From assembly GCA_041687695.1 (NCBI GenBank), contig JAWLBL010000007.1:32001-96000 (forward strand): a DNA stretch of 64,000 nucleotides. The letters run 5' to 3'. The notes beneath the pieces were generated by a model, which was not told the DNA's origin, made no database searches, and saw nothing but the letters and a program-made list of their open reading frames with translations. The translations under genes and the position numbers were made by a program. The DNA is from Myxococcota bacterium (GTDB lineage Bacteria; Myxococcota_A; UBA9042; PHBI01; JAWLBL01). Shown here one piece after another: positions 26,913 to 41,312 of the stretch (its first letter is position 1; the number at the start of each line of letters is the position of its first letter).

Positions 26913-29900
26913 TCAGGGGAGATCGGCGTCGTCGCGCGTCGGCGGCGTCTCGGGGCGGTCGGGGCAGTCGTCGAAGGCGTGGCACAGCGAGGTGTCGAGC
27001 ACCTTGCCGCCCGTGGCGCCGTACTTGCCGAGCATGTTGAACATGAACATGCCGATGTCGAAGACGCGCTCGTCCTTGCACTGGCCGCACGGGATCGGCG
27101 CGTCCGGGCCCTTGCAGGCGTCCTGGCACCGCGCGATGGCGCGGTCGACGAACGAGCCCGGCGGGTCGAAGCCGTGCTGTCCGTCGGGCCGCGGGAAGGG
27201 CCAGATCGAGCCGGAGATGCCGCAGTGGGCCTCGCCGCGTTCACACAGCTTGTCCTCGCCGTAAAGGCGCAGCGGCGGGTCGAGGCGGGGGATTCCGACG
27301 GGGGTCCAGTAGTCGTCGCCCTCGGAGAAGTCCTCGAGGTCGATGTGGACCGGCGTGCCGTTGGCGTCGGTGTAGCGGCCGAGGACGTGGACGGCCTCGG
27401 CGGCGTAGGTGTCGATGAGCACCTGGTTGGCCGGCTTGCCGTAGCGCGGGTCGTCCTCGAGGAAGCCGACGAGGCCGGCGGTGCGCGAGTGGGTCAGGCC
27501 CGACGACGCCGGGACGTTCATGTCGCCCATCGTCGTGACCACCAGCGTGTGGGCGCCGGTGGTCGTGCCGGTCGCCTCGTAGGTCAGCGGCTCGTCGAGC
27601 AGGTGCGGCGCGACGACGCCGGGGTCGGCCGGGTCGACGACGAACTGGGCCAGGCTGAGCAGCCGGCGGAACTCGGGCGTCGCGCGGTGCAGCGCCATGC
27701 CCTCGGCCAGCGAGACCAGCGGCTCGCCGACGCCGTAGGAGCGGCCCTGGAACTGCACCAGATGGCCGAACCGCTCGACGAGCGCGAAGGGCATGGCGTC
27801 CTGTTGCAGCTCGCAGTCCGGCTTGCCGGCGAGGACCGGGCCCCGGAAGACGCTCAGGCGCGTCGCGTCGCCCAGATCGCTGGCCACGGCCACGCGGACG
27901 TTCCCGTTGCGGTCGACGAAGCCGCAGCCGCGCTCGCCGTTGATGAGGTTCTCGGCGAGCACCGTGTCGCCCTTGCGGACGTCGGCCACGGTCGCGATGG
28001 TGCGGGTCGCGGTCTTGTTGAGGTCGGGGATGACGGTGCGCAGCGTCAGTGTGCCGTCCTCGGCGAGCGTCCCCGTGTAGATCGGGGCCATCAGGCGCAG
28101 CTGGACGGCCTCGCGGACGCCGCCCTGCAGCGAGCGGTTGCCGACGTCGATGAGGCCGCCGCCGCCCGAGATGGGGACGATGGCGGACACCTCGGGCTCG
28201 AGGGCGCCGACCATCTGGCTCATGATGCCGCCGAGGGACCCGCCGCTCATGGCGATGATGGACTCGGCGCCGATGTCGACCTTGCCGTCGCCGTCGAAGT
28301 CGCCCGCGAGGTCCGGCTCGCCGTCGCCGTTGACGTCGAAGGCCCAGCGGCGCTTGCCGTCGAAGGTCCGCAGGATGCGGACGAGCTGCATGTAGTCGAC
28401 CGTGCACTGGCGGACGACGTCGCGGGTGTGGAACAGGTAGCTGGTCCAGAAGTCCGCGCCGGAGTCCTTGCCGCCGTTGCGGTTGAGGTCGACCGCGCGG
28501 TCCTTGAGCACGGCGTCGAGGAAGGTGCCCAGGCCGAGTGAGCCGAGCAGGCTGCGGGCCAGCTCCGCCTCCTCGGCGTCGAGGCCGATGCCGTGCGAGG
28601 GGCAGTCGATGGCCACGGTGGCGAGGCCGTGCTTGGCCATGAAGCCGGCCTGCGACAGCGCCTCGATGCGGTTGGACGTGTAGCCGTGGCCCATGATCAT
28701 GACCGGCGCATGCTGGCCCTGGCCGCGGGGGGAGGCCTCCTTGCGCGGGATGTAGAAGGTCACGTAGACGTCCTCGCCGAAGACCGGCGCGGCGACCCGG
28801 TCGAGGTCCGGCGGCCAGGACTGGTCGTTCTCGGGCAGGCGCTGGCCGCCGTCGTCGAAGCGCGGGAACAGCTGCGGCGACGAGAACCGGGCGATGGCCT
28901 GGTAGTCGATGAACCGCATCGCGTCCTCCATCGTGCGATAGGTGAAGGACGACGGGTCCATCCCGAGCAGCTCGCCGCCGAGGGCGGCCATGATGGGCAG
29001 CAGCTGCTCGGTCGGCAGCACGTAGGGGTTCTTCACGCCCGCGAAGGTGTCGCTGTCGGGATCGCGCAGGATCTCGAGGCCGGCGAACTCGGCCGGGTGC
29101 TGCTCGCCCATGGCGGCCTGGACGCCGTGGCCGTACAGGCCGTCGCGGACCGCCTTCCAGTGGGCCTCGATCGACTGGGTCGTGAAGCTGAAGGCGAAGG
29201 CGACGTCGGAGAGCTTCAGCCCCTCGGGGAGCACCTCGGGCAGCGCGTCGAGGGCGTGGGTCTGCGACTCGTGGTTGATGGCGGGGAAGGGCGAGCCGAC
29301 GGGCTCGCCGGCCTCGTCCTTGAGCCGGCGCGTGACGACGACCGCGTAGGTCGTGCGCTCGCGCAGCGGCATCATGGGGCGGAGGATGAGGGTGTTGGTC
29401 TGGCGCTCGTAGAAGTACATGAGCGCGTCGGCGCGGCCGGCGAGGTCGTCGCGGGCCGGGGAGGCGCCGGGGAGGTAGTTGGGGACGTCGAGCACGCCGT
29501 CGGCGTCGGTGTCCTCGGGCCACTCGTCGTCGTCGATGACCCCGTCGCCGTTGGCGTCGCCGCCGAGGTCGAGGACGCCGTTGCCGTTGAGATCCTCGTC
29601 GGCCTCCTCGAACATGAGCGACAACGTCCAGTCACGCGGGTCGTTGTGCCAGTAGTCGAGCTTCTCGAGGACCACCGGGTAGTTGCCGTTGCCCACGTCC
29701 AGGTGGTGGACGCGGCCCAGCTCGGGGGAGTCCCGGTCGACGTTGATGAGGTAGACGACGTCGTTGGACAGGTCGTAGTCGGCGTCCCGGTGGCCGTCGA
29801 CGATCGACTGGATGTCGAGCGGCCCCGTGAACGGGATGGTGATGGGCTGCATGACGCCCCAGCCGTCGAGCTGGTCGACCAGGTGGCGCAGGTGCCGCTC

Positions 29901-30140
29901 GAGGTGCGTCGGGGCGAGCTGCGAGGCGTTGATGCGTAGGCCGGTGGCCGACGTGGCGTCGTAGCGCGTCGCGAGGTCGTTGGGCAGCGGGATGTTGGGC
30001 AGCGGCCGGTGGTACCAGTCGAAGGCGACGGTGGTCTTGGCCGGCGGCGCGTCGGCGAGGCCGAGGGGCTCGGCGGGCAGGCAGCCGGCGGACAGGGAGA
30101 GGGCGAGCAGGGCCGTGGTGGTTCGCAGGATCGATCTCAC
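26913..30140 (-). CDS. Large secreted lipase-like alpha/beta hydrolase lipoprotein with Ca-binding loops
   Basis: Lipobox LSAGC, IPLPNDL N-terminal motif, GHGY, AIDCPSHG, GGSLGG and several DxNGDG loops. The GTG start overlaps the upstream TGA. Confidence 0.8.
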   Translation of the reverse strand: MRSILRTTTALLALSLSAGCLPAEPLGLADAPPAKTTVAFDWYHRPLPNIPLPNDLATRYDATSATGLRINASQLAPTHLERHLRHLVDQLDGWGVMQPITIPFTGPLDIQSIVDGHRDADYDLSNDVVYLINVDRDSPELGRVHHLDVGNGNYPVVLEKLDYWHNDPRDWTLSLMFEEADEDLNGNGVLDLGGDANGDGVIDDDEWPEDTDADGVLDVPNYLPGASPARDDLAGRADALMYFYERQTNTLILRPMMPLRERTTYAVVVTRRLKDEAGEPVGSPFPAINHESQTHALDALPEVLPEGLKLSDVAFAFSFTTQSIEAHWKAVRDGLYGHGVQAAMGEQHPAEFAGLEILRDPDSDTFAGVKNPYVLPTEQLLPIMAALGGELLGMDPSSFTYRTMEDAMRFIDYQAIARFSSPQLFPRFDDGGQRLPENDQSWPPDLDRVAAPVFGEDVYVTFYIPRKEASPRGQGQHAPVMIMGHGYTSNRIEALSQAGFMAKHGLATVAIDCPSHGIGLDAEEAELARSLLGSLGLGTFLDAVLKDRAVDLNRNGGKDSGADFWTSYLFHTRDVVRQCTVDYMQLVRILRTFDGKRRWAFDVNGDGEPDLAGDFDGDGKVDIGAESIIAMSGGSLGGIMSQMVGALEPEVSAIVPISGGGGLIDVGNRSLQGGVREAVQLRLMAPIYTGTLAEDGTLTLRTVIPDLNKTATRTIATVADVRKGDTVLAENLINGERGCGFVDRNGNVRVAVASDLGDATRLSVFRGPVLAGKPDCELQQDAMPFALVERFGHLVQFQGRSYGVGEPLVSLAEGMALHRATPEFRRLLSLAQFVVDPADPGVVAPHLLDEPLTYEATGTTTGAHTLVVTTMGDMNVPASSGLTHSRTAGLVGFLEDDPRYGKPANQVLIDTYAAEAVHVLGRYTDANGTPVHIDLEDFSEGDDYWTPVGIPRLDPPLRLYGEDKLCERGEAHCGISGSIWPFPRPDGQHGFDPPGSFVDRAIARCQDACKGPDAPIPCGQCKDERVFDIGMFMFNMLGKYGATGGKVLDTSLCHAFDDCPDRPETPPTRDDADLP

Positions 30141-31663
30141 AGGCGCACCTCCAACATGGCGCGGGCGCCCAGGACGGCGCCGAGGGTCTCGCCGGACGCG
30201 TCCTCGAAGGCGCTGCCGGGCAGGAAGGCGCCGCCTTCGAGGCCGAAGTGCAGCTGGACGTCGCCCACGTCGCGGAAGTAACGAGCGCCGACGTCGATCT
30301 CGGTGCCCAGGTAGGCGCCGGGCGAGCCGTCGAGGGCGTTGCGGGGCGAGCCGCCGGCCAGGCGCGTCGTGAACGGGTCGGCCACCTCGACGGCGCTGAA
30401 GGCCACGAGCGGACCGCCGTACAGCTCGAGGTGCGGCGTCGCGCGCCACCACACCCGGGGGAAGGCCGCGAAGGTGTTGGAGGCGCCGCCGCGGGTCGCG
30501 ACGCGCTCGACGTCCTCGGGGGGCACGCCGACCAGCTCGAGGTCGTGGGCGGTCACGCGGGCGCGGCCGGTGTGCGCCGCGAGCACGTGGCGGTAGAGCA
30601 GAAAGCCCAGCTCGTAGTTGCGGTTGGCCTTGAAGGCGCGCTGCTCGCGGTCATCGAAGTTGCGGTCGCCGGAGGCGTACAGCAGATCGAGCACGGCGCC
30701 CCAGCGGCCCATGTCCAGGGTGCCGCGGGCGGCCCAGCCGAGCTGCAGGACGTCCTTGGTCGGGAAGTCCGCCGAGGCGCTGAGGGTCGTCTCGCCGACG
30801 ACCAGCGCGGCCTCGGCCTCGAGCTTGAGCTTGGCCGTCTCGGACAGCTTCAGCGTGTGCTGGCCGGTGGCGTCGACGACCGTGACCTCGATGCGATCGC
30901 CGTCGCGGGCCTCCTGCTGTCGGCGCACGACGTAGACGCCGCCGAAGGTGTCCTTCTTGCGGTCAGGGCGCGACAGGTCCATGCCGTAGAAGGCGGCGGC
31001 GACCATCTGGGTGGCCTCGTCGCCGTCGAAGGTGATGTTGTCGTCGATGACGCGGTCGACCGCGAAGAGCGCCCCGAGGCCCTGCTGGTGCCACGGCAGC
31101 ACGATGGCCGTGCCGCGCAGCACGCGGTCGCCGCTCTGGGGCGACGCGAAGCGGGCCGAGCCCGGCTCCCAGAAGGTGGCGCCGTCGTTCGCGAGCAGCC
31201 CCATGCCCCACTGGGAGGTCATGGCGCCGCCCATGAGGTGGACCCAGTGCCCCAGCGACAGGCGGCCGTAGGCCTTGCGCAGCTCGGCGTGGTCTCGCAT
31301 GGCGCGCGGCATGTCCTGGCCGTCGACGCCGGGCGCGTCGGTGAGCCAGCCGGTGATGGCGTCGGCCTCGAGCTCGGCCCCGAGCGCGATGGGCGCCAGC
31401 GTGCGCCGGGTATCGAAGCGGACCCCTAGCCGGACCAGGGTGCTCGCGCCCAGCCCCGGGTCGTACTCGGTGCCGAGCCGATCGATCTCGTAACCGCCGA
31501 CTTGCTCGAGCCGGCCGTCGACGTGCCCCGTCACCTCGAGCCGTACGCCGCTCGGAGCGGCCGCGCTGGCCGCCGCCGTCGGGGCGGCCGGAGCCTCCTC
31601 GGCGGCCGCGGGGCTGGTGAGCGCGAGGCTCCCGACCACAATCTTTGCCATCAACCTACGCAT
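30137..31663 (-). CDS. Probable outer-membrane beta-barrel protein
   Basis: Signal peptide, amphipathic beta-strand pattern, SQWGMGLLAN motif, C-terminal strand. Confidence 0.7.
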   Translation of the reverse strand: MRRLMAKIVVGSLALTSPAAAEEAPAAPTAAASAAAPSGVRLEVTGHVDGRLEQVGGYEIDRLGTEYDPGLGASTLVRLGVRFDTRRTLAPIALGAELEADAITGWLTDAPGVDGQDMPRAMRDHAELRKAYGRLSLGHWVHLMGGAMTSQWGMGLLANDGATFWEPGSARFASPQSGDRVLRGTAIVLPWHQQGLGALFAVDRVIDDNITFDGDEATQMVAAAFYGMDLSRPDRKKDTFGGVYVVRRQQEARDGDRIEVTVVDATGQHTLKLSETAKLKLEAEAALVVGETTLSASADFPTKDVLQLGWAARGTLDMGRWGAVLDLLYASGDRNFDDREQRAFKANRNYELGFLLYRHVLAAHTGRARVTAHDLELVGVPPEDVERVATRGGASNTFAAFPRVWWRATPHLELYGGPLVAFSAVEVADPFTTRLAGGSPRNALDGSPGAYLGTEIDVGARYFRDVGDVQLHFGLEGGAFLPGSAFEDASGETLGAVLGARAMLEVRL

Positions 31664-31887
31664 CCGCGCACCTCCCCTGTGCCTTCAGGCGCCCCTTCGT
31701 ACCGCACGGCGACGGTGGTCACAAGGACGCCATGGCGGCCGCGAGGTGACCGCGTCCCGGGCGCGCGCTCGGTCGTCTCGATTCGAGCCGCACGCGCTGT
31801 AACGAATTGATGCGGTCGCGCCCGGAGGCCAGCGCGCCGAAGACGCAAGTGTGCGGAATGTGGGAGGTGCCGGAGAGGGGGCGGCGC

Positions 31888-31903
31888 TGGCACGGGACGT
31901 GCT
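31888..31903 (+). promoter_or_regulatory. Putative sigma54 -24/-12 promoter
   Basis: TGGCACGGGACGTGCT (GG-N10-GC) about 65 nt upstream of the ATG at 31966. Confidence 0.6.
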
Positions 31904-31965
31904 GTAGGGCAGGGTGCGGTCGCGACGGGGCGACCGCTCGAGGCAGTCGGATGGAGGTTCGGGCG

Positions 31966-33516
31966 ATGAACGGAGCGCTGGGGTGGGCGGCGGAGCGGCG
32001 GGTGAGCGACGGACGCACCGTGAACGGGTTGCTGGCGCTCGCGATGCTCGGGGTGAGCGCGGGGTGTGACGGGGCCGCTGGCGCGCCGGGCGAGCCGGGC
32101 AGCGCGCCCATCGTCGCGCCGGCCGTGGCCGGTCCCGCGACGCCGTCGGGGCGCCCCCCTGCGCTGTCGCCCATGGCGCCGGGCGCCGTCGTCCCGCCGG
32201 CCTGGAACGAGCGCAGGCGGCAAGCCGAGGGCGAAGGCGTGGGGCGCGAGGCGCCGACCGTGCCCGGTCCCGTGAACCACTGCGTGGACCCGGAGGGGAC
32301 CTGGCTGTGCGGCGACGGCGCGCGGTGCCTCGAGCGCGCGGGGGTCTGGGAGTGCCAGTGCGCCAAGGGCTTCGAGGGCGACGGGTTCTCGTGCGTCGAC
32401 GTCGACGAGTGCGCCGCCGGGACGGACGACTGCGAGGGCGACGCGCTGTGCGTGAACGTGCAGGGCGGCTTCACGTGCCGGTGCCCGCAGGGGTTCGAGG
32501 ACCTGGGCGCCGGCTGCGTGGACGTGGACGAGTGCGCGGCGGGGCAGGTCGACTGCGGTGTCGGCGGCGCGTGCGTGAACACCGTGGGGGCGTTCGCCTG
32601 TGAGTGCGCGGACGGCTTCGCCCTGGGCGAGTCGGGGTGCGTCGCGGTCGCCCCCTGTGACCTGGACCCGTGCGCGGCGGGGGCGAGCTGCGTGCCGGCC
32701 GAGGGGGCGTTCGCGTGCGCCTGTCCGGACGGCACCACCGGGGACGGGGTCAGCTTCTGCGCCGCATGGGCGGCGCCGGAGGTGAGGATCGGCAACGGGT
32801 CGCCGGTGGTCACGTCGACGCTGGTGCAGCTGCGCCTGCAGGAGCCCGGGAACCTGCTCGCCAACGGGGGCGCCGAGGAAGGGACGCACGCGGCGTGGAC
32901 CGTGCTGGACGGCGCCGCCTCCGACATCGCCGCGCTCGGCGGCGGGTTCCTGGGCGGCTGGCGCTTCGTGGGCGGGCCCGAGTGGGTCCGGCGCGGGCAG
33001 CTCGTCGACCTCCTCGAGGCCGGGCTGTCCGAGGAGGCGCTCGACGCGGCGCCGCCCATCACCGCGCGCGAGTGGGCCATCGGGACCTGGCCGCAGTACG
33101 GCGACGAGCGCTATCTGCGGGTCGAGCTCCGGGACGCGAGCGGCGCCGTGGTGGCCAGCTGGGAGCACGGGAGCGTGGGGGCGCCGGTGGTGACCGGCGC
33201 GAGCTGGGCCGCGAGCGAGGCGACGCTGGCCGACTACGGCCCCGGGGTCCGCTACGTGTGGTTCGAGGACGGCGTGCGCGGCGCCGAGCCGTTCGCCGGC
33301 GCCCACGGGGCGGCGCTCGACGCCGCGAGCGTGGTCGTCGGGGCGACCCGGATGCGCGTGTCGAACGACGGCGCGACCTGGACCGACTGGCTGGACTTCC
33401 AGCCGATGGTCTCGTGGGAGCTCGAGCCCGGCCCCGGCGACAAGACGGTCTTCGTCGAGCTGCAGGACGCCTGGGGCACGATCCACGCGGCGAGCGCGAC
33501 CGTCCTCCTCCAGTAG
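31966..33516 (+). CDS. Lipoprotein with EGF/Ca-EGF repeats and an FBA (F-box-associated)-like lectin domain inserted in an Ig-like domain
   Basis: GGAGG RBS, lipobox VSAGC, DVDEC EGF repeats, and NLLANGGAEEG...QLVDLLEAGLSEEALD...DYGPGVRYVWFEDG. Confidence 0.85.
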   Translation: MNGALGWAAERRVSDGRTVNGLLALAMLGVSAGCDGAAGAPGEPGSAPIVAPAVAGPATPSGRPPALSPMAPGAVVPPAWNERRRQAEGEGVGREAPTVPGPVNHCVDPEGTWLCGDGARCLERAGVWECQCAKGFEGDGFSCVDVDECAAGTDDCEGDALCVNVQGGFTCRCPQGFEDLGAGCVDVDECAAGQVDCGVGGACVNTVGAFACECADGFALGESGCVAVAPCDLDPCAAGASCVPAEGAFACACPDGTTGDGVSFCAAWAAPEVRIGNGSPVVTSTLVQLRLQEPGNLLANGGAEEGTHAAWTVLDGAASDIAALGGGFLGGWRFVGGPEWVRRGQLVDLLEAGLSEEALDAAPPITAREWAIGTWPQYGDERYLRVELRDASGAVVASWEHGSVGAPVVTGASWAASEATLADYGPGVRYVWFEDGVRGAEPFAGAHGAALDAASVVVGATRMRVSNDGATWTDWLDFQPMVSWELEPGPGDKTVFVELQDAWGTIHAASATVLLQ

Positions 33517-33627: not shown

Positions 33628-34779
33628 GTGGCCAAGCACACCGTCGACAGCCTCAACAAGCGTCTCGCCTCCCTCCACGGCCACTACCAGCGGCAATACG
33701 CGGGCCTGCCGCGCCACAGCCGGCCGGTCGAGCCCCTGGTCAAGCTCATCGAGAAGGCGGCCGACATCGTGCGCCGGGTCAAGAAGCTCAAGGGCGAGGA
33801 GGCGCGCAAGCTCGAGGCGACGGCCCTCGAGCGGCTCAAGCTGTATGCGAGCGAGAAGGACGCGATCGTCGAGGCCCAGGCGGCCAGCGAGGCGGAGCTC
33901 GAGGGGCGCGAGCTGGCCGTGCGGTTCCAGCTGACGACCGGGCGCTACCGGCGCCACTTCGCCGGCCAGGACCGCAGGACCCGCGATCTGGGGCTGCTGC
34001 GGGCCATCACGGACGATCTCCGCGCGATCGAGGGGCGCCTGGCCGAGCTCGCCGCGGTCGAGCGGACGATGGACATGAGCGGCCGGCACTCGGCGGCCAA
34101 GGGGCAGCGCGATCTCTGCGAGGGCGAGCTGAAGGCCATCGCCGAGGCGCGGCGCGACCAGGCGCTCGAGGCGCGCGCGGACCAGCTGGCCGCGGTGGCC
34201 AACCGGCAGTTCACCGTCTATCGCGAGCAGTTCGAGGGCCGACCGAGGCCGACGTGCCGACCCGAGCTGCTCGAACGCATCGTGGGGACGCTCGAGGAGA
34301 CGCTCGCCGAGCTGGAGGATCCGGCCTTCGGGGGCCTCGCGGACCCGAGCCGCGTCGAGGCGAACCGCGCGGTGATCCGCGACCAGATCACGCGCTATCG
34401 CGCCGAGCTCGAGGCGCTGGTCGAGGCGCACGGCGCCGTGTCGCTGGACACCCGGGTCGGGCTGCTCGGCGGCGCGGCCAACGAGATGATGGCCCTTTAC
34501 CGCGAGCACTTCGCGGGCCAGGACCGCGCCACGCGCAACCTGAGCCTGCTGTCGCTCATGTGCGACCGCCTGGGCGAGGTCGAGCAGCAGATGACCGGGA
34601 TAGGGCGGAGCGCGAGCAGCGCGGCGAACACGAGGAACGTGACGCTGGTCCGACAGACGCTGCGGGCCTGGGAGGAGGAGTACACCAAGATCGCCGAGGT
34701 CCAGGCCAAGCGGCCGGGCGGGACCTCGGCCCCCCGGCCGTCGGACCCGCTGGCGGGTCTCATCCGGACGGGCGGCTGA
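33628..34779 (+). CDS. Helical protein with four internal repeats (YxxxFxGxxRxTR)
   Basis: GAGGAGG RBS with GTG start; four repeated motifs. Confidence 0.8.
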   Translation: MAKHTVDSLNKRLASLHGHYQRQYAGLPRHSRPVEPLVKLIEKAADIVRRVKKLKGEEARKLEATALERLKLYASEKDAIVEAQAASEAELEGRELAVRFQLTTGRYRRHFAGQDRRTRDLGLLRAITDDLRAIEGRLAELAAVERTMDMSGRHSAAKGQRDLCEGELKAIAEARRDQALEARADQLAAVANRQFTVYREQFEGRPRPTCRPELLERIVGTLEETLAELEDPAFGGLADPSRVEANRAVIRDQITRYRAELEALVEAHGAVSLDTRVGLLGGAANEMMALYREHFAGQDRATRNLSLLSLMCDRLGEVEQQMTGIGRSASSAANTRNVTLVRQTLRAWEEEYTKIAEVQAKRPGGTSAPRPSDPLAGLIRTGG

Positions 34780-34998
34780 GGGGAACGAGGCGGCGCATCG
34801 GCGCCCCGACCGGCGGACCCGCTGGCGGGTCTCATCCGGACGGGCGGCCGAGGGGAACGAGGCGGCGCATCGGCGCCCCGACCGGCGGACCCGCTGGCGG
34901 GTCTCATCCGGACGGGCGGCTGAGGGGAACGAGGCGGCGCATCGGCCCCCCGGCCGGCGGACCCGCTGGCGGGTCTCATCCGGACGGGCGGCTGAGGG
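34726..34998. repeat. 72-bp tandem repeat x4 duplicating the 3' end of the upstream gene
   Basis: CGGACCCGCTGGCGGGTCTCATCCGGACGGGCGGC recurs at 34742, 34814, 34886 and 34958. Confidence 0.92.
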
Positions 34999-35132
34999 GG
35001 GCGCAGCGGCGAGGCGGCGCATCGACGTCGTATCGCAGGGCGGTCGCCATCGGCTACGATGGCTCGCCGACGGCGAGGTTCGCGAGCTCGGCCGTCGCCG
35101 TATCCCCTCCGGCCCGCGCGACGAGGCCCGCC

Positions 35133-35902: not shown

Positions 35903-36415
35903 TCAGCGGGACTCGGGATCTTCACCCTCCCAGTAGTCCACCGCGTCTTCGTGCCGGAAGAAGGCTTGCAGCAGCCGCTGGTCCTTGGGTCCGCCGGGGG
36001 CGGCGCCCGCCATGACGCCGACCTTGGCCGAGTCGGGGTAGCCGAGGACGTCCGGGGCGACCATGGTCGACAGGACCAGGTAGCGTAGCGGGGCGTCCGT
36101 CGTGTTGACGGTCTGGTGCGCGTGCTCGGGGCCGGCGGGCAGGGCCACGTAGTCCCCGGCGCGCAGCGGCACCTCCGTCGCGCCGAGGCGCAGCAGGCCA
36201 GCGCCCTCGAGGACGTAGATGGCCTCTTCGTTGGCGAAGTGGAAGTGGAAGGGCCACGCGCGGCGGCCGGCGGGGAGCTCGATGAGGCTGCAGCCGAGCG
36301 CGGCGCCGCCAGCGGCGGCCGCGAGCTGCTTGCGGCGGCCTCCGAAGTGGGGGGCGTGGCTGGTGTCGACCCAGTCCAGGTCGGCCTCGTTGACGACGCG
36401 AGGGTGTCGGCTCAT
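35903..36415 (-). CDS. Cupin domain protein
   Basis: WPFHFHFANEEAIYVLEG, HAHQ and YPDSAKV. Confidence 0.9.
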   Translation of the reverse strand: MSRHPRVVNEADLDWVDTSHAPHFGGRRKQLAAAAGGAALGCSLIELPAGRRAWPFHFHFANEEAIYVLEGAGLLRLGATEVPLRAGDYVALPAGPEHAHQTVNTTDAPLRYLVLSTMVAPDVLGYPDSAKVGVMAGAAPGGPKDQRLLQAFFRHEDAVDYWEGEDPESR

Positions 36416-37365
36416 CGGGAGTCCAGCGAGTCGGAGAGGGGGGCAGGGCGGGCGCCTCGGCGGCGCCAGAGCGGGGTGAAGCGTCGGGTGAGGACGAGGC
36501 CCACCAGGCCCACCCACCCCAGGGTGCGGAGCCACCGGTCGGCCGGCCCCGAGCCCACGTAGCCATAGTCCTGCTCGGCCAGCGGATACGGCTCCTGCTC
36601 GAGCAGCGCGATCAGCGCCGGGTCACCGTACGGGACGCCGTCGAGCGTGTGGACGACCGTTCGCCCTTCGGCCAGCGCGCGCAAGACACCGCCGGCGCTG
36701 ACCTCGTCGACGAAGATCAGGGTGCGCAGGATGCCGAGGATGCTGGCCAGGTGGTAGTCCGAGGTGCCGACCGGCGTCAGCGCGAAGCCGTCGGCCACGG
36801 CCTCGCGGTAGAAGTCCAGCATGTCCGACCAGCGCGGCCCGCCGGCGCCGGCGAAGGCGATGGGGTGCATGAGCTCGACGCCGTCCAGCGAACCGCGCAC
36901 CGTCCTCAGCGAGTCCTTGAAGCGTCCGAAGGGGTGGGCGCCGATGGCGAGGCCGCCCTTGGCGTGGATGTCGTCGACGAGCGCGTCCAGCGGCTGATCC
37001 CAGGCGATGCGTTGCTCGACGCCCAAGGCATGCACGTGCCAGTCACGCGTCGTGACCTCTTGCCCGACGAGGACGATGGGCCCTCCCCAGAGCTCGGCGA
37101 ACCAGCGCGCCAGCAAGGCCGGCAGGACCTGGTTGTGCTCGGTGACCGCGATGACGTCGAGATCGCGTCGACGCGCCTGGGCGACGACGCCCAGCGGAGA
37201 CAGGAGGCCATCGCTGAAGCGGGTGTGGACGTGGAGATCGGCCTCGAGCACGGTCCAGGGACCCCGGCGCTCGGGCGGCTCGGTCGCCAGCTCGTCGAGC
37301 GCGGTGCCTCCGACGAGCCCGACGGCGACCAGGAGCCACGCGGCCCGCGACCAGGCGGCGCTCAT
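36412..37365 (-). CDS. PHP-domain phosphoesterase with N- and C-terminal hydrophobic segments
   Basis: DLHVHTRFSDG, TEHN, GQEVT, AHP and GTSDYH; ATGA overlaps with both neighbours. Confidence 0.88.
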   Translation of the reverse strand: MSAAWSRAAWLLVAVGLVGGTALDELATEPPERRGPWTVLEADLHVHTRFSDGLLSPLGVVAQARRRDLDVIAVTEHNQVLPALLARWFAELWGGPIVLVGQEVTTRDWHVHALGVEQRIAWDQPLDALVDDIHAKGGLAIGAHPFGRFKDSLRTVRGSLDGVELMHPIAFAGAGGPRWSDMLDFYREAVADGFALTPVGTSDYHLASILGILRTLIFVDEVSAGGVLRALAEGRTVVHTLDGVPYGDPALIALLEQEPYPLAEQDYGYVGSGPADRWLRTLGWVGLVGLVLTRRFTPLWRRRGARPAPLSDSLDSR

Positions 37366-38015
37366 CGAGGCACCGTGAGGACCGCCTGGAGCTGCCCCGT
37401 CGCCAGGTAGTAGCCGACGATCACGCCACCGTAGACGGCGTAGTACAGCCCAGCGGCCGCCGTGGCGCGCCCCGCGGACAGCTGGAACCCGTGCCGACAG
37501 GCCGCCCACGTCAGCCACAGCGACCACATGACCACCGCGACGAGGGCGACCGGCAACACGCGAGTCGTCACGAGCCACACGAAGGCCGCGTACACGTCGG
37601 GCGCGAACAGGCACACGGCCGAGACGGTGAGCAGGAGCACCAGCCACGGCCCCTGGCCGACCATCAGGACGTCCACGGCCTGAGACAGCCGCCAGCGGGG
37701 CGCCCAGAGGGCACGAACGGCGGCGATCGCCAGGATCTGCGTCAGCGGGACGAAGGACCAGAAGACGAACGTGCCCACGAAGTGAACGGCCGTGAGCCGG
37801 CCGGCCGACGTGAACGAGACGAACCCCGCGAGGACGAGGAGCAAGAGCAGGGGCCGGCGCGCCATCGTCCAACCCGAGGGCGCGGGAGGCTGCTCGCCCA
37901 GACGCCTCCACACGGCGCGCGGACGCACCAGCGCCTCGGCCTCGTCGGACCACGTCCGGGCGCGGGGGGGCGAGGTCGCGTCGCCCTCGGTGCGACCGTC
38001 GCCGCGCGCCGTCAT
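37362..38015 (-). CDS. Multi-pass membrane protein (Yip1-like topology)
   Basis: About 5 TM segments; translationally coupled to the PHP gene. Confidence 0.75.
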   Translation of the reverse strand: MTARGDGRTEGDATSPPRARTWSDEAEALVRPRAVWRRLGEQPPAPSGWTMARRPLLLLLVLAGFVSFTSAGRLTAVHFVGTFVFWSFVPLTQILAIAAVRALWAPRWRLSQAVDVLMVGQGPWLVLLLTVSAVCLFAPDVYAAFVWLVTTRVLPVALVAVVMWSLWLTWAACRHGFQLSAGRATAAAGLYYAVYGGVIVGYYLATGQLQAVLTVPR

Positions 38016-38327
38016 CCCTCGCCCTCGGCCGCGCGGAGGCGCGTGGGGCCGAAGGTGGGGGCGCAGGCGCGCAGCCTCGGCGACCCAGCCTGGGCCAGCA
38101 GGGGCGGGGAGGGGACGCGATGGTGCAGGGTATTCGCGGGGCTGACGCGCGGCACGAGCGCTCCGGACCGAGGCCGCGGTGGCGCGCTCGCAGCAGGACG
38201 CGCCGCCGCCCGACGACCGCTGTCGCCAGGTGGGACAGGGTATAGCCTCGCGGCACGTCGGCCGCCAAGCTGGACCCGCGGCACGTGGCCACTCGCTGGA
38301 GACGCACCAGCCGGCCGGGGGCAGGGG

Positions 38328-38789
38328 CGGTGGCCGTGAGCCGTGGCCGTGGCGGCGTCCGTGGAGTCGTGGCGGCGGCCGTGGAGTCGTGGCGGCGGCC
38401 GTGAGCCGTGGCGGTGGCCGTGAGCCGTGGCGGTGGCCGTGAGCCGTGAGCCGTGAGCCGTGGCGGTGGCGGTGGCCGTGAGCCGTGGCGGTGGCCGTGA
38501 GCCGTGGCGGTGGCCGTGAGCCGTGGCTGTGGCTGTGGCCGTGAGCCGTGGCGGTGGCCGTGAGCCGTGGCTGTGGCCGTGAGCCGTGGCGGTGGCCGTG
38601 AGCCGTGGCTGTGGCCGTGAGCCGTGGCTGTGGCCGTGAGCCGTGGCGGTGGCCGTGAGCCGTGGCTGTGGCTGTGGCCGTGAGCCGTGGCGGTGGCCGT
38701 GAGCCGTGAGCTGTGGCGGCGGGTCGTGAGCCGTGGCGGTGGCCGTGAGCCGTGGCGGTGGCCGTGAGCGGTGGTGCTGGCCGTGGCGC
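38328..38789. repeat. Long simple-sequence array (GGCCGTGAGCCGTGGC(G/T)GT units)
   Basis: Directly visible array of about 460 bp, intergenic between divergent genes. Confidence 0.92.
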
Positions 38790-38828
38790 TGCCGAGCGCC
38801 AGGGTCATCGCAAAGTCGGTCGAGCGTT

Positions 38829-38972
38829 GCGCGCAGCGAGCTGCGCGACCCACGAGCCCCAGCGAGCTGGGGCAGTCCGTCAAGACTCGCCGCCACGAAT
38901 CCACCTCGGAGTCCGACGACCGGACTGCACGAGCTCGCTCGTGCTCCGGCGTCGCGCGGCTCGCCGCGCTGA
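38829..38972. repeat. REP-like multi-hairpin cluster, copy B
   Basis: Hairpins GCGCAGCGAGCTGCGC and CCCCAGCGAGCTGGGG, the 32-nt hairpin at 38919-38950 identical to 22354-22385, then GCGCGGCTCGCCGCGC. Confidence 0.75.
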
Positions 38973-39135
38973 ATGGGAGGCGTGGCGAGCCCATTGGCGA
39001 CTTTGCGACCGCCCTGTGCCGAGCGCCGGGGTGACTTGTCCCTGCGGCGCTTCCGCTGTATCCCCGCTGAGTGGGCTCGGCGCGCCGATGGCGCCGCCCG
39101 GCCGTGCCGCCCGGACGCGGCGGAGGTGACGAGCG

Positions 39136-40263
39136 ATGAGCCGATACATCGTCCCGGAGGCGATGACCCGCTTCCGGTGCAACGAGAAGGGGTGCTGCTG
39201 CAAGGGGTGGCGCATCAACTGGGAGGTCGACGAGGTCATCGCGCTGCTGCGCGACCTGCCCCCGGCGCGCCGTGACGGCCTGATGCGGGGCGCGCGCATC
39301 TTGATGGACGGCGGGGTGGCCGACTCGATCGAGCTGCGACGGGACGGGCCCGACGACGCCTGTCAGCTCCTGACGGACGATGGCCGGTGCGGCGTCCACG
39401 TCGAGCGCGGCCCCGAGGTGCTGCCGGGGCTCTGTCAGCGCTACCCGGCCTACGGCATCGCGACCGACGACGGGATCGAGCTGCACTTCGACGCCATCTG
39501 TCCCGAGGTGCTTGCCCAGATCGACGAGTCCGACGCTCCCTACGCCCTCGTGAGTCGCGCCGCTCCCACCGGGGACCACCTGGATCTGCGGGCCACGCGT
39601 CCGCTGGCGCCGGCGGCCATCGCCGTGGGCGACCGCCCGCTCACCCACGCGCAGCTGATCGTGCTCCGCGAGCGCATCCTGGCGCACCTCTCGCGCGCCG
39701 ACCGAGCGGCCATCGACAAGCTCGCCGACATCTCCTACGCCCTGGCGCGGGTCGCCAAGGGCGAGCCGATCGAGGCCTTCGAGGTGGACACCGCCGGCCC
39801 CGTCGAGCCCTTCGAGGCCTACCTGGACACCTGCGTCGCCATGCACCACGAGGCGGCGCTGGCCCGCTTCTTCGGGCGCTATCGCCGCTTCGTGTTCGAC
39901 CTGCCAGTGGCCGACGCGGACCCGACGGCGTTGCCGCGGGCGCTGGCGCCCGACCCGAGGTGGCGCGAGGACCTCGATCCCCGCGATCCCCGGTTCGACG
40001 CCTTCATCGCGCGCTATCTGGCGCATCGGTACTACAACGCCTACGGCGTCTCGCGGGTCGGTCACCAGGTCGGCTTCACCTATGGGACCGTGGCTCAGGC
40101 GCTGGCCATCGGCTTCCGCTACTCGGTCGGTCTCGCCCGGTGGCTGGGGCGCCCCGTCGATCGCGCCACGCTCAAGGTGGGCGTCGGCGCCTCGGAGTAC
40201 CTCTTCCGGACCCTGGACCTGCCGCCGGTCGGGATGCCCTGGTTCGGACTCGACGTGGCTTGA
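39136..40263 (+). CDS. FliB-like lysine N-methylase / YkgJ-type Cys-cluster protein
   Basis: FRCNEKGCCCKGWRI, CQLL..GRCGVH, LCQRYP and ICPE; GGAGG RBS. Confidence 0.75.
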   Translation: MSRYIVPEAMTRFRCNEKGCCCKGWRINWEVDEVIALLRDLPPARRDGLMRGARILMDGGVADSIELRRDGPDDACQLLTDDGRCGVHVERGPEVLPGLCQRYPAYGIATDDGIELHFDAICPEVLAQIDESDAPYALVSRAAPTGDHLDLRATRPLAPAAIAVGDRPLTHAQLIVLRERILAHLSRADRAAIDKLADISYALARVAKGEPIEAFEVDTAGPVEPFEAYLDTCVAMHHEAALARFFGRYRRFVFDLPVADADPTALPRALAPDPRWREDLDPRDPRFDAFIARYLAHRYYNAYGVSRVGHQVGFTYGTVAQALAIGFRYSVGLARWLGRPVDRATLKVGVGASEYLFRTLDLPPVGMPWFGLDVA

Positions 40264-40457
40264 CCCGGGCGCAGCCGCGCCGGAGCGGCGGACCGCCCGT
40301 GGCCCCAGCAGCGTGTGCGCGAGCTGCCCTGCCCGCCGCGCCAGCAGGCTCGCCCACGCACGCCAGCCCCGACGCCAGGGACCCGGCCGGTCGTCCGTCG
40401 GGGTGACGCTGGCGCGATGGCGAGGCGTCGGCGGCCAGGGCCCTGGCGGACGGGACG

Positions 40458-40931
40458 TCACGCCGACACCTCGCTCGCGCAGGCGGCGACGAGCGCGAGC
40501 AAGGACTCGCCATAGCGCTCGAGCTTGGCCGGCCCGATCCCACGCACCGTCGACAGGTCCTCCGGGGAGCGCGGCCGCAGGATGGCGATGTCCGCGAGCT
40601 CGCGGTTGGACAGGACCATGAAGCGGTTGACGCCTTCGGAGCGGGCCTGGTCGTTGCGCCAGTCGCGCAGGGCCGCGAAGAGCGGGACACAGTCCTCGGG
40701 CAGCTGCTTGTCCCAGTCGACGCGCTCGCGGCGCGGCGGCTCCGACGCGGCCTCGCCGGGCTCGAGCTGCACGACGAAGGTCAGCGCGGGCTCGCCCGAC
40801 ACGTCGTGCAGGTGGTGGTCGATGCGTGCGGCGACGCGGCCGCGCAGCGCCTCGCAAAGGGGGGCGGGGTCGAACTGGGGGAGCCCGGGCGGGGTGGCCG
40901 CGAGGCGGAGCGTGACGATGGCGACGTCCAT
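40458..40931 (-). CDS. Stand-alone HRDC domain protein
   Basis: LFAALRDWRNDQA..EGV..FMVLSNRELADIA..RP...L..VRGIGPAKLERYG. Confidence 0.88.
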   Translation of the reverse strand: MDVAIVTLRLAATPPGLPQFDPAPLCEALRGRVAARIDHHLHDVSGEPALTFVVQLEPGEAASEPPRRERVDWDKQLPEDCVPLFAALRDWRNDQARSEGVNRFMVLSNRELADIAILRPRSPEDLSTVRGIGPAKLERYGESLLALVAACASEVSA

Positions 40932-41312
40932 GGGTCTCTCTCGAGATGGGGGGGCCGCTGGCCCGTTGCAGGGGGGGCTCCGCTGGGGGCGTCGGCGCGC
41001 CTTGGCGGAGCACGCGCTGCGCGTGGAGACGTACGGGCGACCCTGCGCAGCGCGAGCGCGTCCTCGGGCACCGCCGCCCGGGACGTAAATACAAGTCGGG
41101 CGATCGGGCCGTTTCGTTGCGCGGTTTCTCGACGAATCGCACATCGCTTCGGAATCGCTACGTTTTTTGCGCTGGCCGGGACGTGCCTCAGGCGCGATCG
41201 GTCCGGCGACCTGGCCCGCGGAGCGTCGCCGGTGGGTGGGCCACTCGCGTCCGTCGCGCCGCGCCGGGGCGGCCTAATGCGCCGAGGTCAGCAGCTCTTG
41301 CGAAGCGTTGCG

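Follow-up and report, generated by a model that had tools for sequence, protein, structure and literature searches.

An Fbs1-like FBA domain inserted in an Ig-like domain, with a changed sugar-binding pocket, on a predicted EGF-stalk lipoprotein of a Myxococcota bacterium

The window analysed here is a 64,000-nucleotide stretch of contig JAWLBL010000007.1 (positions 32,001 to 96,000 of the forward strand) in the Myxococcota bacterium assembly GCA_041687695.1, and all coordinates below are those of the window itself. Near its middle lies a gene for a protein, P0001, in which a sequence-only reading had recognised an FBA domain, a fold that the literature describes as the sensor for N-glycans in the SCF ubiquitin ligases of animals, set inside an immunoglobulin (Ig)-like domain on a stalk of epidermal growth factor (EGF)-like modules. 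The gene occupies 31966-33516 on the + strand and encodes 516 amino acids followed by a stop codon, as judged from the list of open reading frames (ORFs), the start codons, homology and an identical 516-residue protein that is already on record. The enclosing + strand open frame extends from 31807 to 33516, within which the ATG at 31966 is the most likely start, and a Shine-Dalgarno-like GGAGG (31952-31956, +) can be read directly 8 nt ahead of it. The reading frame is fixed by homology, in the form of the Pfam and PDB matches described below, and all of the motifs quoted in the earlier reading (NLLANGGAEEG, QLVDLLEAGLSEEALD, PPITAREW, LRVELRD, DYGPGVRYVWFEDG, FAGAHG...SVVV, VRIGNG... and MRVSNDGATWTDW) were found in it. 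The G+C content is between 70 and 77% throughout the window and 74-76% in the gene, like its surroundings. A scan for consensus promoters and for terminators came back empty on both counts, which at 74% G+C was to be expected, and no NCBIfam family matched P0001.

The protein is laid out as a series of modules. Its first 34 codons (31966-32067, +) would encode a lipoprotein signal peptide ending in the lipobox V-S-A-G-C, with the Cys codon at 32065-32067; the N-terminus reads ...ERRVSDGRTVNGLLALAMLGVSAG-C, which by eye we take to fit the lipobox pattern, and an N-terminal ...AGC or ...GC was also present in the relatives P0002, P0032 and P0043. There follows a Pro/Ala/Gly-rich segment (32068-32280, +; residues 35-105) that is predicted to be disordered on the basis of its composition and a predicted local distance difference test score (pLDDT) below 50. 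The next stretch (32281-32760, +; residues 106-265) holds four EGF-like modules, seen both as four six-Cys units, two of which open with the calcium-binding-type motif D-V-D-E-C, and in Pfam searches, in which EGF_CA (PF07645) reached 85.3 bits (cut-off 27, E 3.4e-24) over 4 stretches, and EGF (PF00008, 68.5 bits), EGF_3 (PF12947, 65.1 bits) and cEGF likewise scored above their cut-offs. The stalk of the earlier reading was thereby borne out by Pfam. The remaining 251 amino acids form a C-terminal head, composed of two Ig-like strands, A and B, of the Big_7-like type (VRIGNGSPVVTSTLVQLRLQE; 32773-32844, +), the FBA domain (32848-33345, +; residues 295-460) and the C-terminal part of the Ig-like domain with strands C to G (33346-33513, +). 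In an AlphaFold model of the full-length protein residues 1-101 had pLDDT values below 50 and the EGF region values of about 68-85, and the predicted template modelling score (pTM) was 0.52, as expected for a layout of beads on a flexible string.

The membership of the head in the FBA family was evident from both sequence and predicted structure. P0001 scored 51.2 bits on the Pfam family FBA (PF04300), well above its cut-off of 32.4 (E 1.6e-13), in a partial match that spans model positions 51-175 of 175, and when the genome was searched in all six frames the same domain reached 54.3 bits. A sequence search of the PDB returned 8 distinct sequences at E<=1, all of them from FBXO2, FBXO6 or FBXO44, the best at E 1.8e-12. 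The head alone, modelled with AlphaFold from a 17-row alignment of the target and 16 relatives (A1), reached a mean pLDDT of 94.3 and a pTM of 0.88. When this model was compared with the sugar-binding domain of Fbs1 by VIA-align, the two superposed with a Z score of 23.2 and a root-mean-square deviation (rmsd) of 1.6 A over 160 residues, so that residues 30-195 of the head model correspond to residues 125-297 of Fbs1, the whole sugar-binding domain; the segment of about 32848-33340 proposed from the sequence thus needed only a small shift of its 3' border. In Foldseek, ten chains of Fbs1, Fbs2 and FBG3 stood at the top of the list (E 2.3e-13 to 4.8e-11; template modelling score 0.74-0.79 by target length).

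The earlier reading had also envisaged that the fold might resemble only generic jelly-rolls of carbohydrate-binding modules (CBMs), a candidate that we rejected, because the Fbs proteins ranked first, leading by 7 or more units in Z and by some 7 orders of magnitude in Foldseek E value. Beyond the Fbs chains Foldseek listed a phage tailspike, CBM16, CBM61 and CBM22, from E 1.3e-6, and in VIA-align the Fbs family scored Z 20-23 and the best chain outside it, a CBM61, Z 16.1. CBM61, CBM16, CBM4 and CBM22, which typically occur on secreted proteins, have the same general jelly-roll as the target (Z 12-16) but only 11-19% identity with it, a likeness of fold and not of membership, and no CBM family in Pfam matched P0001 at E<=10. 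As modelled, the head domain is a genuine beta-sandwich of the FBA family, of the Fbs1 type, with a superposable ten-stranded antiparallel fold. The nearest ESM Atlas clusters, to be taken as leads only, were hypothetical proteins of a rotifer, Verrucomicrobiota and Actinomycetota (0.95) and an F-box only protein 2 (0.93). The assignment to the family is already known, being annotated automatically by Pfam, and the target is one divergent member of it. With Fbs1/FBXO2, Fbs2/FBXO6 and FBG3/FBXO44 (PDB 1UMH, 1UMI, 2E31-33, 2RJ2, 8ZUH and 3WSO) it shares the Pfam family, the beta-sandwich (Z 20-23, rmsd 1.6-2.6 A over 155-162 residues), 25-33% identity and strand motifs such as DYGPGVR and ..ELRD. 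It differs from them in that the FBA domain is set inside an Ig-like domain, is matched by Pfam over positions 51-175 only, and belongs to a protein that is predicted to be secreted or lipid-anchored, away from Skp1 and the cytosol. The lectin-type F-box proteins (FBXO2, 6, 17, 27 and 44, and NCCRP1) carry an N-terminal F-box or Skp1-binding region and are cytosolic, whereas P0001, in which Pfam found no F-box match, has a signal peptide with lipobox and EGF modules instead.

The insertion of this domain into an Ig-like domain could be followed with a profile built from 28 uninterrupted Ig repeat units of 8 proteins, whose repeat unit reads ...I.INGGATYTNSTAVSLSLSATDAGSGVYQMRFSNDNASWSAWEAY...KSWTL..GDGTKTVYVQY.DNAGN... 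and is visible in canonical form in P0017, P0080 and P0097. Profile positions 26-84 aligned to head residues 192-250 with 60.8 bits (E 3.3e-20), and positions 6-26 aligned to head residues 8-28 (VRIGNGSPVVTSTLVQLRLQE), in a match that is colinear with the first and weak when taken alone (-1.0 bits, E 0.66); in the relative P0109 the match of this N-segment reached E 0.0019. Since the repeat profile aligns colinearly across the split, the FBA domain appears to replace the short loop between strands B and C of the Ig unit ("ATDAGSGVYQ"). The repeats in question are of the Big_7/DUF7743/Big_13 type found in giant surface proteins: the C-terminal part of the target (MRVSNDGATWTDW...GDKTVFVELQD) matches their profile and its N-segment is colinear with it, but unlike the uninterrupted Big_7-type repeats the Ig domain of the target is broken after strand B by the 166-residue FBA domain. 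In Pfam, the uninterrupted units of P0017 and P0111 matched Big_7, and that of P0017 also DUF7743, while the two Ig pieces of P0001 alone matched no Pfam family, Big_7 included. The precomputed Pfam list of the metagenomic relative P0002 contains PF27506.1, an accession that did not come up in the Pfam scans made here and that may be a newer family over the Ig-like part.

Further evidence on the split module came from the structure models and from the relatives. Residues 7-10 and 21-27 of the modelled head, which belong to the N-segment, adopt strands (pLDDT 92-94), and the pTM of the head argues for one rigid unit. With the N-segment (31 residues) and the C-part (58 residues) supplied as separate chains, in 3 runs and with 3 controls, a two-chain fold scored 0.53 in all 3 runs against 0.02 for the best control, with at least 97% agreement of contacts between runs and a partner pLDDT of at least 69. 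The verdict on this fold was "weak support": 51 of 78 solved complexes and 2 of 108 mismatched pairs came up to the mark for such folds; those that did so with a score of 0.60 or under were only 5 of these 78 complexes and all 4 of the mismatches (of 180) that passed. The same split points occur in the aligned relatives, across at least 12 protein clusters, and P0025 carries two complete Ig(FBA) modules in tandem after its EGF repeats, so that the Ig(FBA) unit duplicates as one piece. Taken with the profile alignment, these observations support the earlier proposal that the FBA domain splits an Ig-like module.

FBA domains are rare among the immediate relatives of the bacterium. Its own genome contains none besides the target in a six-frame search, and none turned up in 60 relatives from its order or class (1/61 when its own genome is counted). 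An even sample of its phylum contained FBA in 3 of 401 genomes, its own included, and a corresponding sample of Verrucomicrobiota, the phylum of locus L011, in 2 of 201, the centre genome included. An exhaustive protein search with the head gave 2346 matches at E<=1e-3, 116 of them at E<=1e-30, in which Ig-only and FBA matches are mixed and giant multi-repeat proteins that align only to head residues ~185-250 dominate. From the best 150 of these matches we picked by hand 34 proteins whose best stretch lay over the FBA part, and Pfam recognised FBA in 33 of the 34 and an F-box in none. Their partner domains are prokaryotic and extracellular, and include Por_Secre_tail of the type IX secretion system (T9SS), DUF4347 together with cadherin-like and RTX repeats, NAGPA, PKD_6, dockerin, PA14, Laminin_G_3, TSP_3 and EGF. 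The label "eukaryote-type" given to the domain in the sequence-only reading is misleading in the light of these FBA domains without F-box on secreted prokaryotic proteins, a context that the wider prokaryotic set shares with the target.

A scan for loci, with one genome per species and a 7-row alignment as query, confirmed 285 stretches, and a set of 80 was retained from them. The whole nested module was found in Minicystis rosea (two loci), Polyangium sp. 15x6, P. jinanense, Byssovorax cruenta and three myxobacterial metagenome-assembled genomes (MAGs), and FBA alone in Verrucomicrobiota, Bacteroidota and two archaeal MAGs; the 64 remaining loci (L018-L081), from many phyla, matched only the C-part of the Ig-like domain. 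The bacterial proteins with the nested module share 43-49% identity with the target, and those of Minicystis and Polyangium resemble it in having a signal peptide, EGF repeats and an Ig(FBA) head, with 39-43% identity over ~410 residues. One of the Minicystis rosea proteins (P0049, APR88630.1; locus L004, CP016211.1), with EGF modules and a nested FBA domain, is annotated as "microneme protein 4", a label presumably carried over from apicomplexan EGF proteins. Non-myxobacterial FBA proteins, such as those with T9SS tails in Bacteroidia, mostly have free-standing or tandem FBA domains, unlike the nested target. As far as seen, an Ig-nested FBA domain on an EGF-stalk lipoprotein is a new architectural variant that has so far been met in Polyangiaceae-type myxobacteria and in the genome studied here, and P0001 is its most divergent member.

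In order to place the target relative to the animal domains, FBA rows of FBXO2, 6, 27, 44 and 50 and of invertebrate homologues were gathered by way of a pike protein from the exhaustive search; animals are the only eukaryotes sampled, and the trees are unrooted. A quick tree of 119 rows (24 animal, 19 nested and 76 other prokaryotic) united the animal rows in one clade (Shimodaira-Hasegawa-like approximate likelihood ratio test 100) and placed the target among the rows with the nested module. An approximately unbiased (AU) test on this tree, in which the 24 animal rows and the target were forced together, did not reject the constraint (p-AU 0.619), and the free tree fell 10.29 log-likelihood units short of the constrained one, which shows that the quick free search was poor. 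A careful tree of 50 rows (12 animal, 19 nested and 19 other), calculated under LG+C20+F+G4 with 200 bootstraps and leaving out the long P0152, placed the 12 animal rows on one side of a branch with support 100/99, present in 100% of the 200 bootstrap trees. Across a second branch (97/95) the target and 35 further prokaryotic rows stood apart from the animal rows together with P0237 and the archaeal L013, and the target was sister to the metagenomic P0083 (97/80). In the same tree 18 nested rows and, in addition, the tandem-module protein P0025 were grouped (88/80), and the nested P0109 stood elsewhere, with P0004 (99/96). The phylogenetic comparison called for in the earlier reading came out in two parts, with the careful tree setting the animal clade apart from the target and the AU test on the quick tree failing to reject their union. 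L013 (4001-4534 of that locus) and P0237 are the prokaryotic FBA domains that score best on the animal-derived Pfam profile, at ~132 bits, and adjoin the animal clade in both trees; that of L013 lies within an open frame of 3366 codons in a 1.7-Mb archaeal MAG.

These data bear on the possibility that the domain was recently transferred into this bacterium from an animal or another eukaryote, which might be suspected since Pfam FBA is named after animal F-box proteins and known from them, since only 1 in 61 close relatives and so few genomes of the phylum carry it, and since the AU test tolerated the union. Identity is, however, 43-49% to the bacterial proteins with the nested module as against 25-33% to the Fbs proteins, the rare nesting of FBA in an Ig-like domain with EGF modules is common to the target and the Polyangiaceae proteins, the careful tree parts the animals from the target on both branches and gives the latter a metagenomic sister, P0083, and the gene lacks an F-box and has the G+C content of its surroundings. 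Because of the careful tree, the identities and the shared architecture we consider a recent transfer from a eukaryote extremely improbable. Given that FBA domains without F-box occur in several bacterial phyla and in archaeal MAGs, the target gene alone says little on the origin of the FBA domain, contrary to what had been hoped for it; it is neither unique nor, taken alone, informative in this respect.

What sets the target apart within the family is its pocket. In Fbs1, Phe177 in the loop beta3-beta4 and Tyr279 and Trp280 in the loop beta9-beta10 make hydrophobic contacts with the GlcNAc-GlcNAc (chitobiose; GlcNAc, N-acetylglucosamine) unit and are described as essential (PMC4603797), and a Y279/W280 mutant lost substrate binding, as cited in PMC12904710. 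In the HMMER alignment the target has Pro, Pro and Phe at these three positions, and Ala at that of Lys281; the codons of the triad were checked and lie at 32977-32979 (+; Pro, within FVGGPEWVR) and at 33289-33294 (+; Pro-Phe, within AEPFAGAH). The replacement of the YW pair by PF noted in the earlier reading was thus correct and in fact understated, since Phe177 is replaced by Pro as well. Among the relatives in A1 the Trp was kept in 15 of 16, and of the 14 rows that extend over the column of Phe177, 13 have Tyr or Phe in it; P0083 is the sole A1 row besides the target without the Trp. In a wider set of 87 FBA instances, drawn from 152 proteins and loci L002-L017 and containing at least 3 duplicates between proteins and loci, the Trp was present in 69 and an aromatic residue at the Phe177 position in 66, so that further instances also lack the Trp, and the combination P/P/F occurred once, in the target, although the loop alignment of the divergent rows is uncertain. 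Most prokaryotic FBA relatives hence keep Tyr or Phe and Trp in the pocket and the target does not.

Because its triad reads P/P/F and not F/Y/W, chitobiose binding in the manner of Fbs1 is unlikely for the target. This concerns above all the idea of an Fbs1-like lectin by which a predatory myxobacterium would recognise the chitobiose/Man3GlcNAc2 core of N-glycans on fungal or protist prey. The target does share its family and its fold with Fbs1, and its nearest relatives, which keep Tyr or Phe at the Phe177 position and Trp at that of Trp280, come from soil myxobacteria; nevertheless, none of the three residues described as essential for Fbs1 is kept, and Pro stands at two of their positions, so that we hold this function to be highly unlikely for P0001.

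The reading that we prefer, to which we would give about an even chance, is that P0001 is a predicted lipoprotein consisting of a tether, an EGF stalk and an Ig(FBA) head, with the head acting outside the cytoplasm as a ligand-binding domain, probably for a carbohydrate, but in a mode other than the Fbs1-style binding of a chitobiose core. In such a protein the Pro/Ala-rich segment would serve as a flexible tether to the lipid anchor and the calcium-binding EGF modules as a semi-rigid rod. Both ends of the FBA domain would enter one loop of the Ig-like domain, and Fbs1 has its sugar site opposite the end by which the domain is attached to the remainder of the protein (PMC4603797); because of these two circumstances the ligand loops may be expected at the distal tip, away from the stalk, where the pocket of the target may bind another ligand or none. 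A carbohydrate is suggested as the class of ligand by the secreted, carbohydrate-related contexts of the relatives (NAGPA glycosidase, PA14, Laminin_G_3, dockerin and T9SS tails).

Several points weigh against a surface-exposed, ligand-binding head. The lipoprotein is predicted from a pattern read by eye, and its sorting hints conflict as to location: Asp at position +2 is an inner-membrane retention signal in Escherichia coli and Ala at +7 fits the matrix-export signature of Myxococcus xanthus, as described in PMC3222651, and the +7 Ala is not common to P0002, P0032 and P0043. The pairing of strands between the halves of the Ig-like domain, like the shape of the pocket, is inferred from the model. 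A literature search retrieved no data on binding, localisation or expression for P0001 or for any bacterial FBA domain, and no sequencing runs or RNA data were listed. The aromatic triad is kept in most relatives and lost in the target, and binding may have been lost with it altogether.

According to this alternative the FBA domain of the target binds no ligand and acts as a structural cap or spacer, or else the gene is drifting under relaxed constraint. The unique P/P/F triad favours it, as do the degradation in the target of N-terminal motifs that are conserved in the relatives (GDLSGW, GGNGW and TSY), the low and partial Pfam match (51-54 bits as compared to ~75-132 bits over positions 9-175 in the relatives), and the long terminal branch (0.63-0.66) and deviant composition of the target in the trees; in addition, FBG3/FBXO44 provides a precedent of an FBA domain that lacks sugar binding despite possessing the triad (PMC4603797). 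On the other hand, the 516 codons make up an intact frame, the fold of the head is predicted with very high confidence, eight columns (D115, W149, Y159, G162, R164, E176, G183 and W210) are invariant in all 17 rows of A1, with E176 directly adjoining the changed pair of the pocket, and the Phe that takes the place of the Trp is still aromatic. On the sequence evidence, loss of glycan binding appears about as likely as a new specificity in this pocket, given that the target has lost each of the three aromatic contacts that Fbs1 makes, and a head devoid of any ligand is, in our estimation, a serious though somewhat unlikely possibility. The preferred ligand-binding reading could also be extended to a bolder one, in which P0001 would be a myxobacterial surface glycan receptor from a large prokaryotic family of extracellular FBA lectins that was the source of the animal lectins of endoplasmic reticulum-associated degradation, Fbs1-3, with P/P/F as an ancient site re-tooled for a different ligand; we regard this extension as doubtful.

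In the literature we found no paper on bacterial members of the family: the papers retrieved that name PF04300 concern plants or fish, and the portion of a 2019 review that was available mentions bacteria only in other senses. The gene gains interest as an intact example of an FBA fold used outside the cell by prokaryotes, as a domain within a domain on an EGF stalk. The triad-bearing homologues of Minicystis and Polyangium, which can be cultivated, and the P/P/F target form a natural contrast for asking what bacterial FBA domains bind, and bacterial FBA homologues could be mined for glycan-capture reagents, a use to which Fbs1 has already been put (PMC5457524).

The neighbourhood of the gene is not shared with its homologues. 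When five neighbouring proteins were compared by tblastn with the 80 related loci, none had a match at E<=1e-5, which leaves no clue from an operon, and the Minicystis and Polyangium loci have no neighbour gene in common with the target locus. In Pfam the neighbours showed sub-threshold matches to Lipase_bact_N and Alginate_exp and, further off, two cupins and an alpha-amylase, none of which is linked to the target. Upstream of the gene and divergently oriented are two ORFs on the minus strand (26913-31663) of 1179 and 508 amino acids, the former with an internal lipobox-like stretch (...LSLSAGC) and the match to Lipase_bact_N, the latter with that to Alginate_exp, an outer-membrane barrel. 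An ORF of 383 amino acids (33628-34779, +) begins 111 bp downstream of the target; it had no Pfam match at E<=0.001 and contains, by eye, two copies of a motif like HFAGQDR.TR.L.LL. Directly past it a 72-bp unit, which holds a GC-rich palindrome-like stretch, is repeated in 3.8 tandem copies with 96% matches (34726-34999), and a long GC-rich tandem array with periods of 6, 19 and 44 and up to ~72 copies (76-85% matches) lies at 38326-38787, within the minus-strand ORF 36412-41142.

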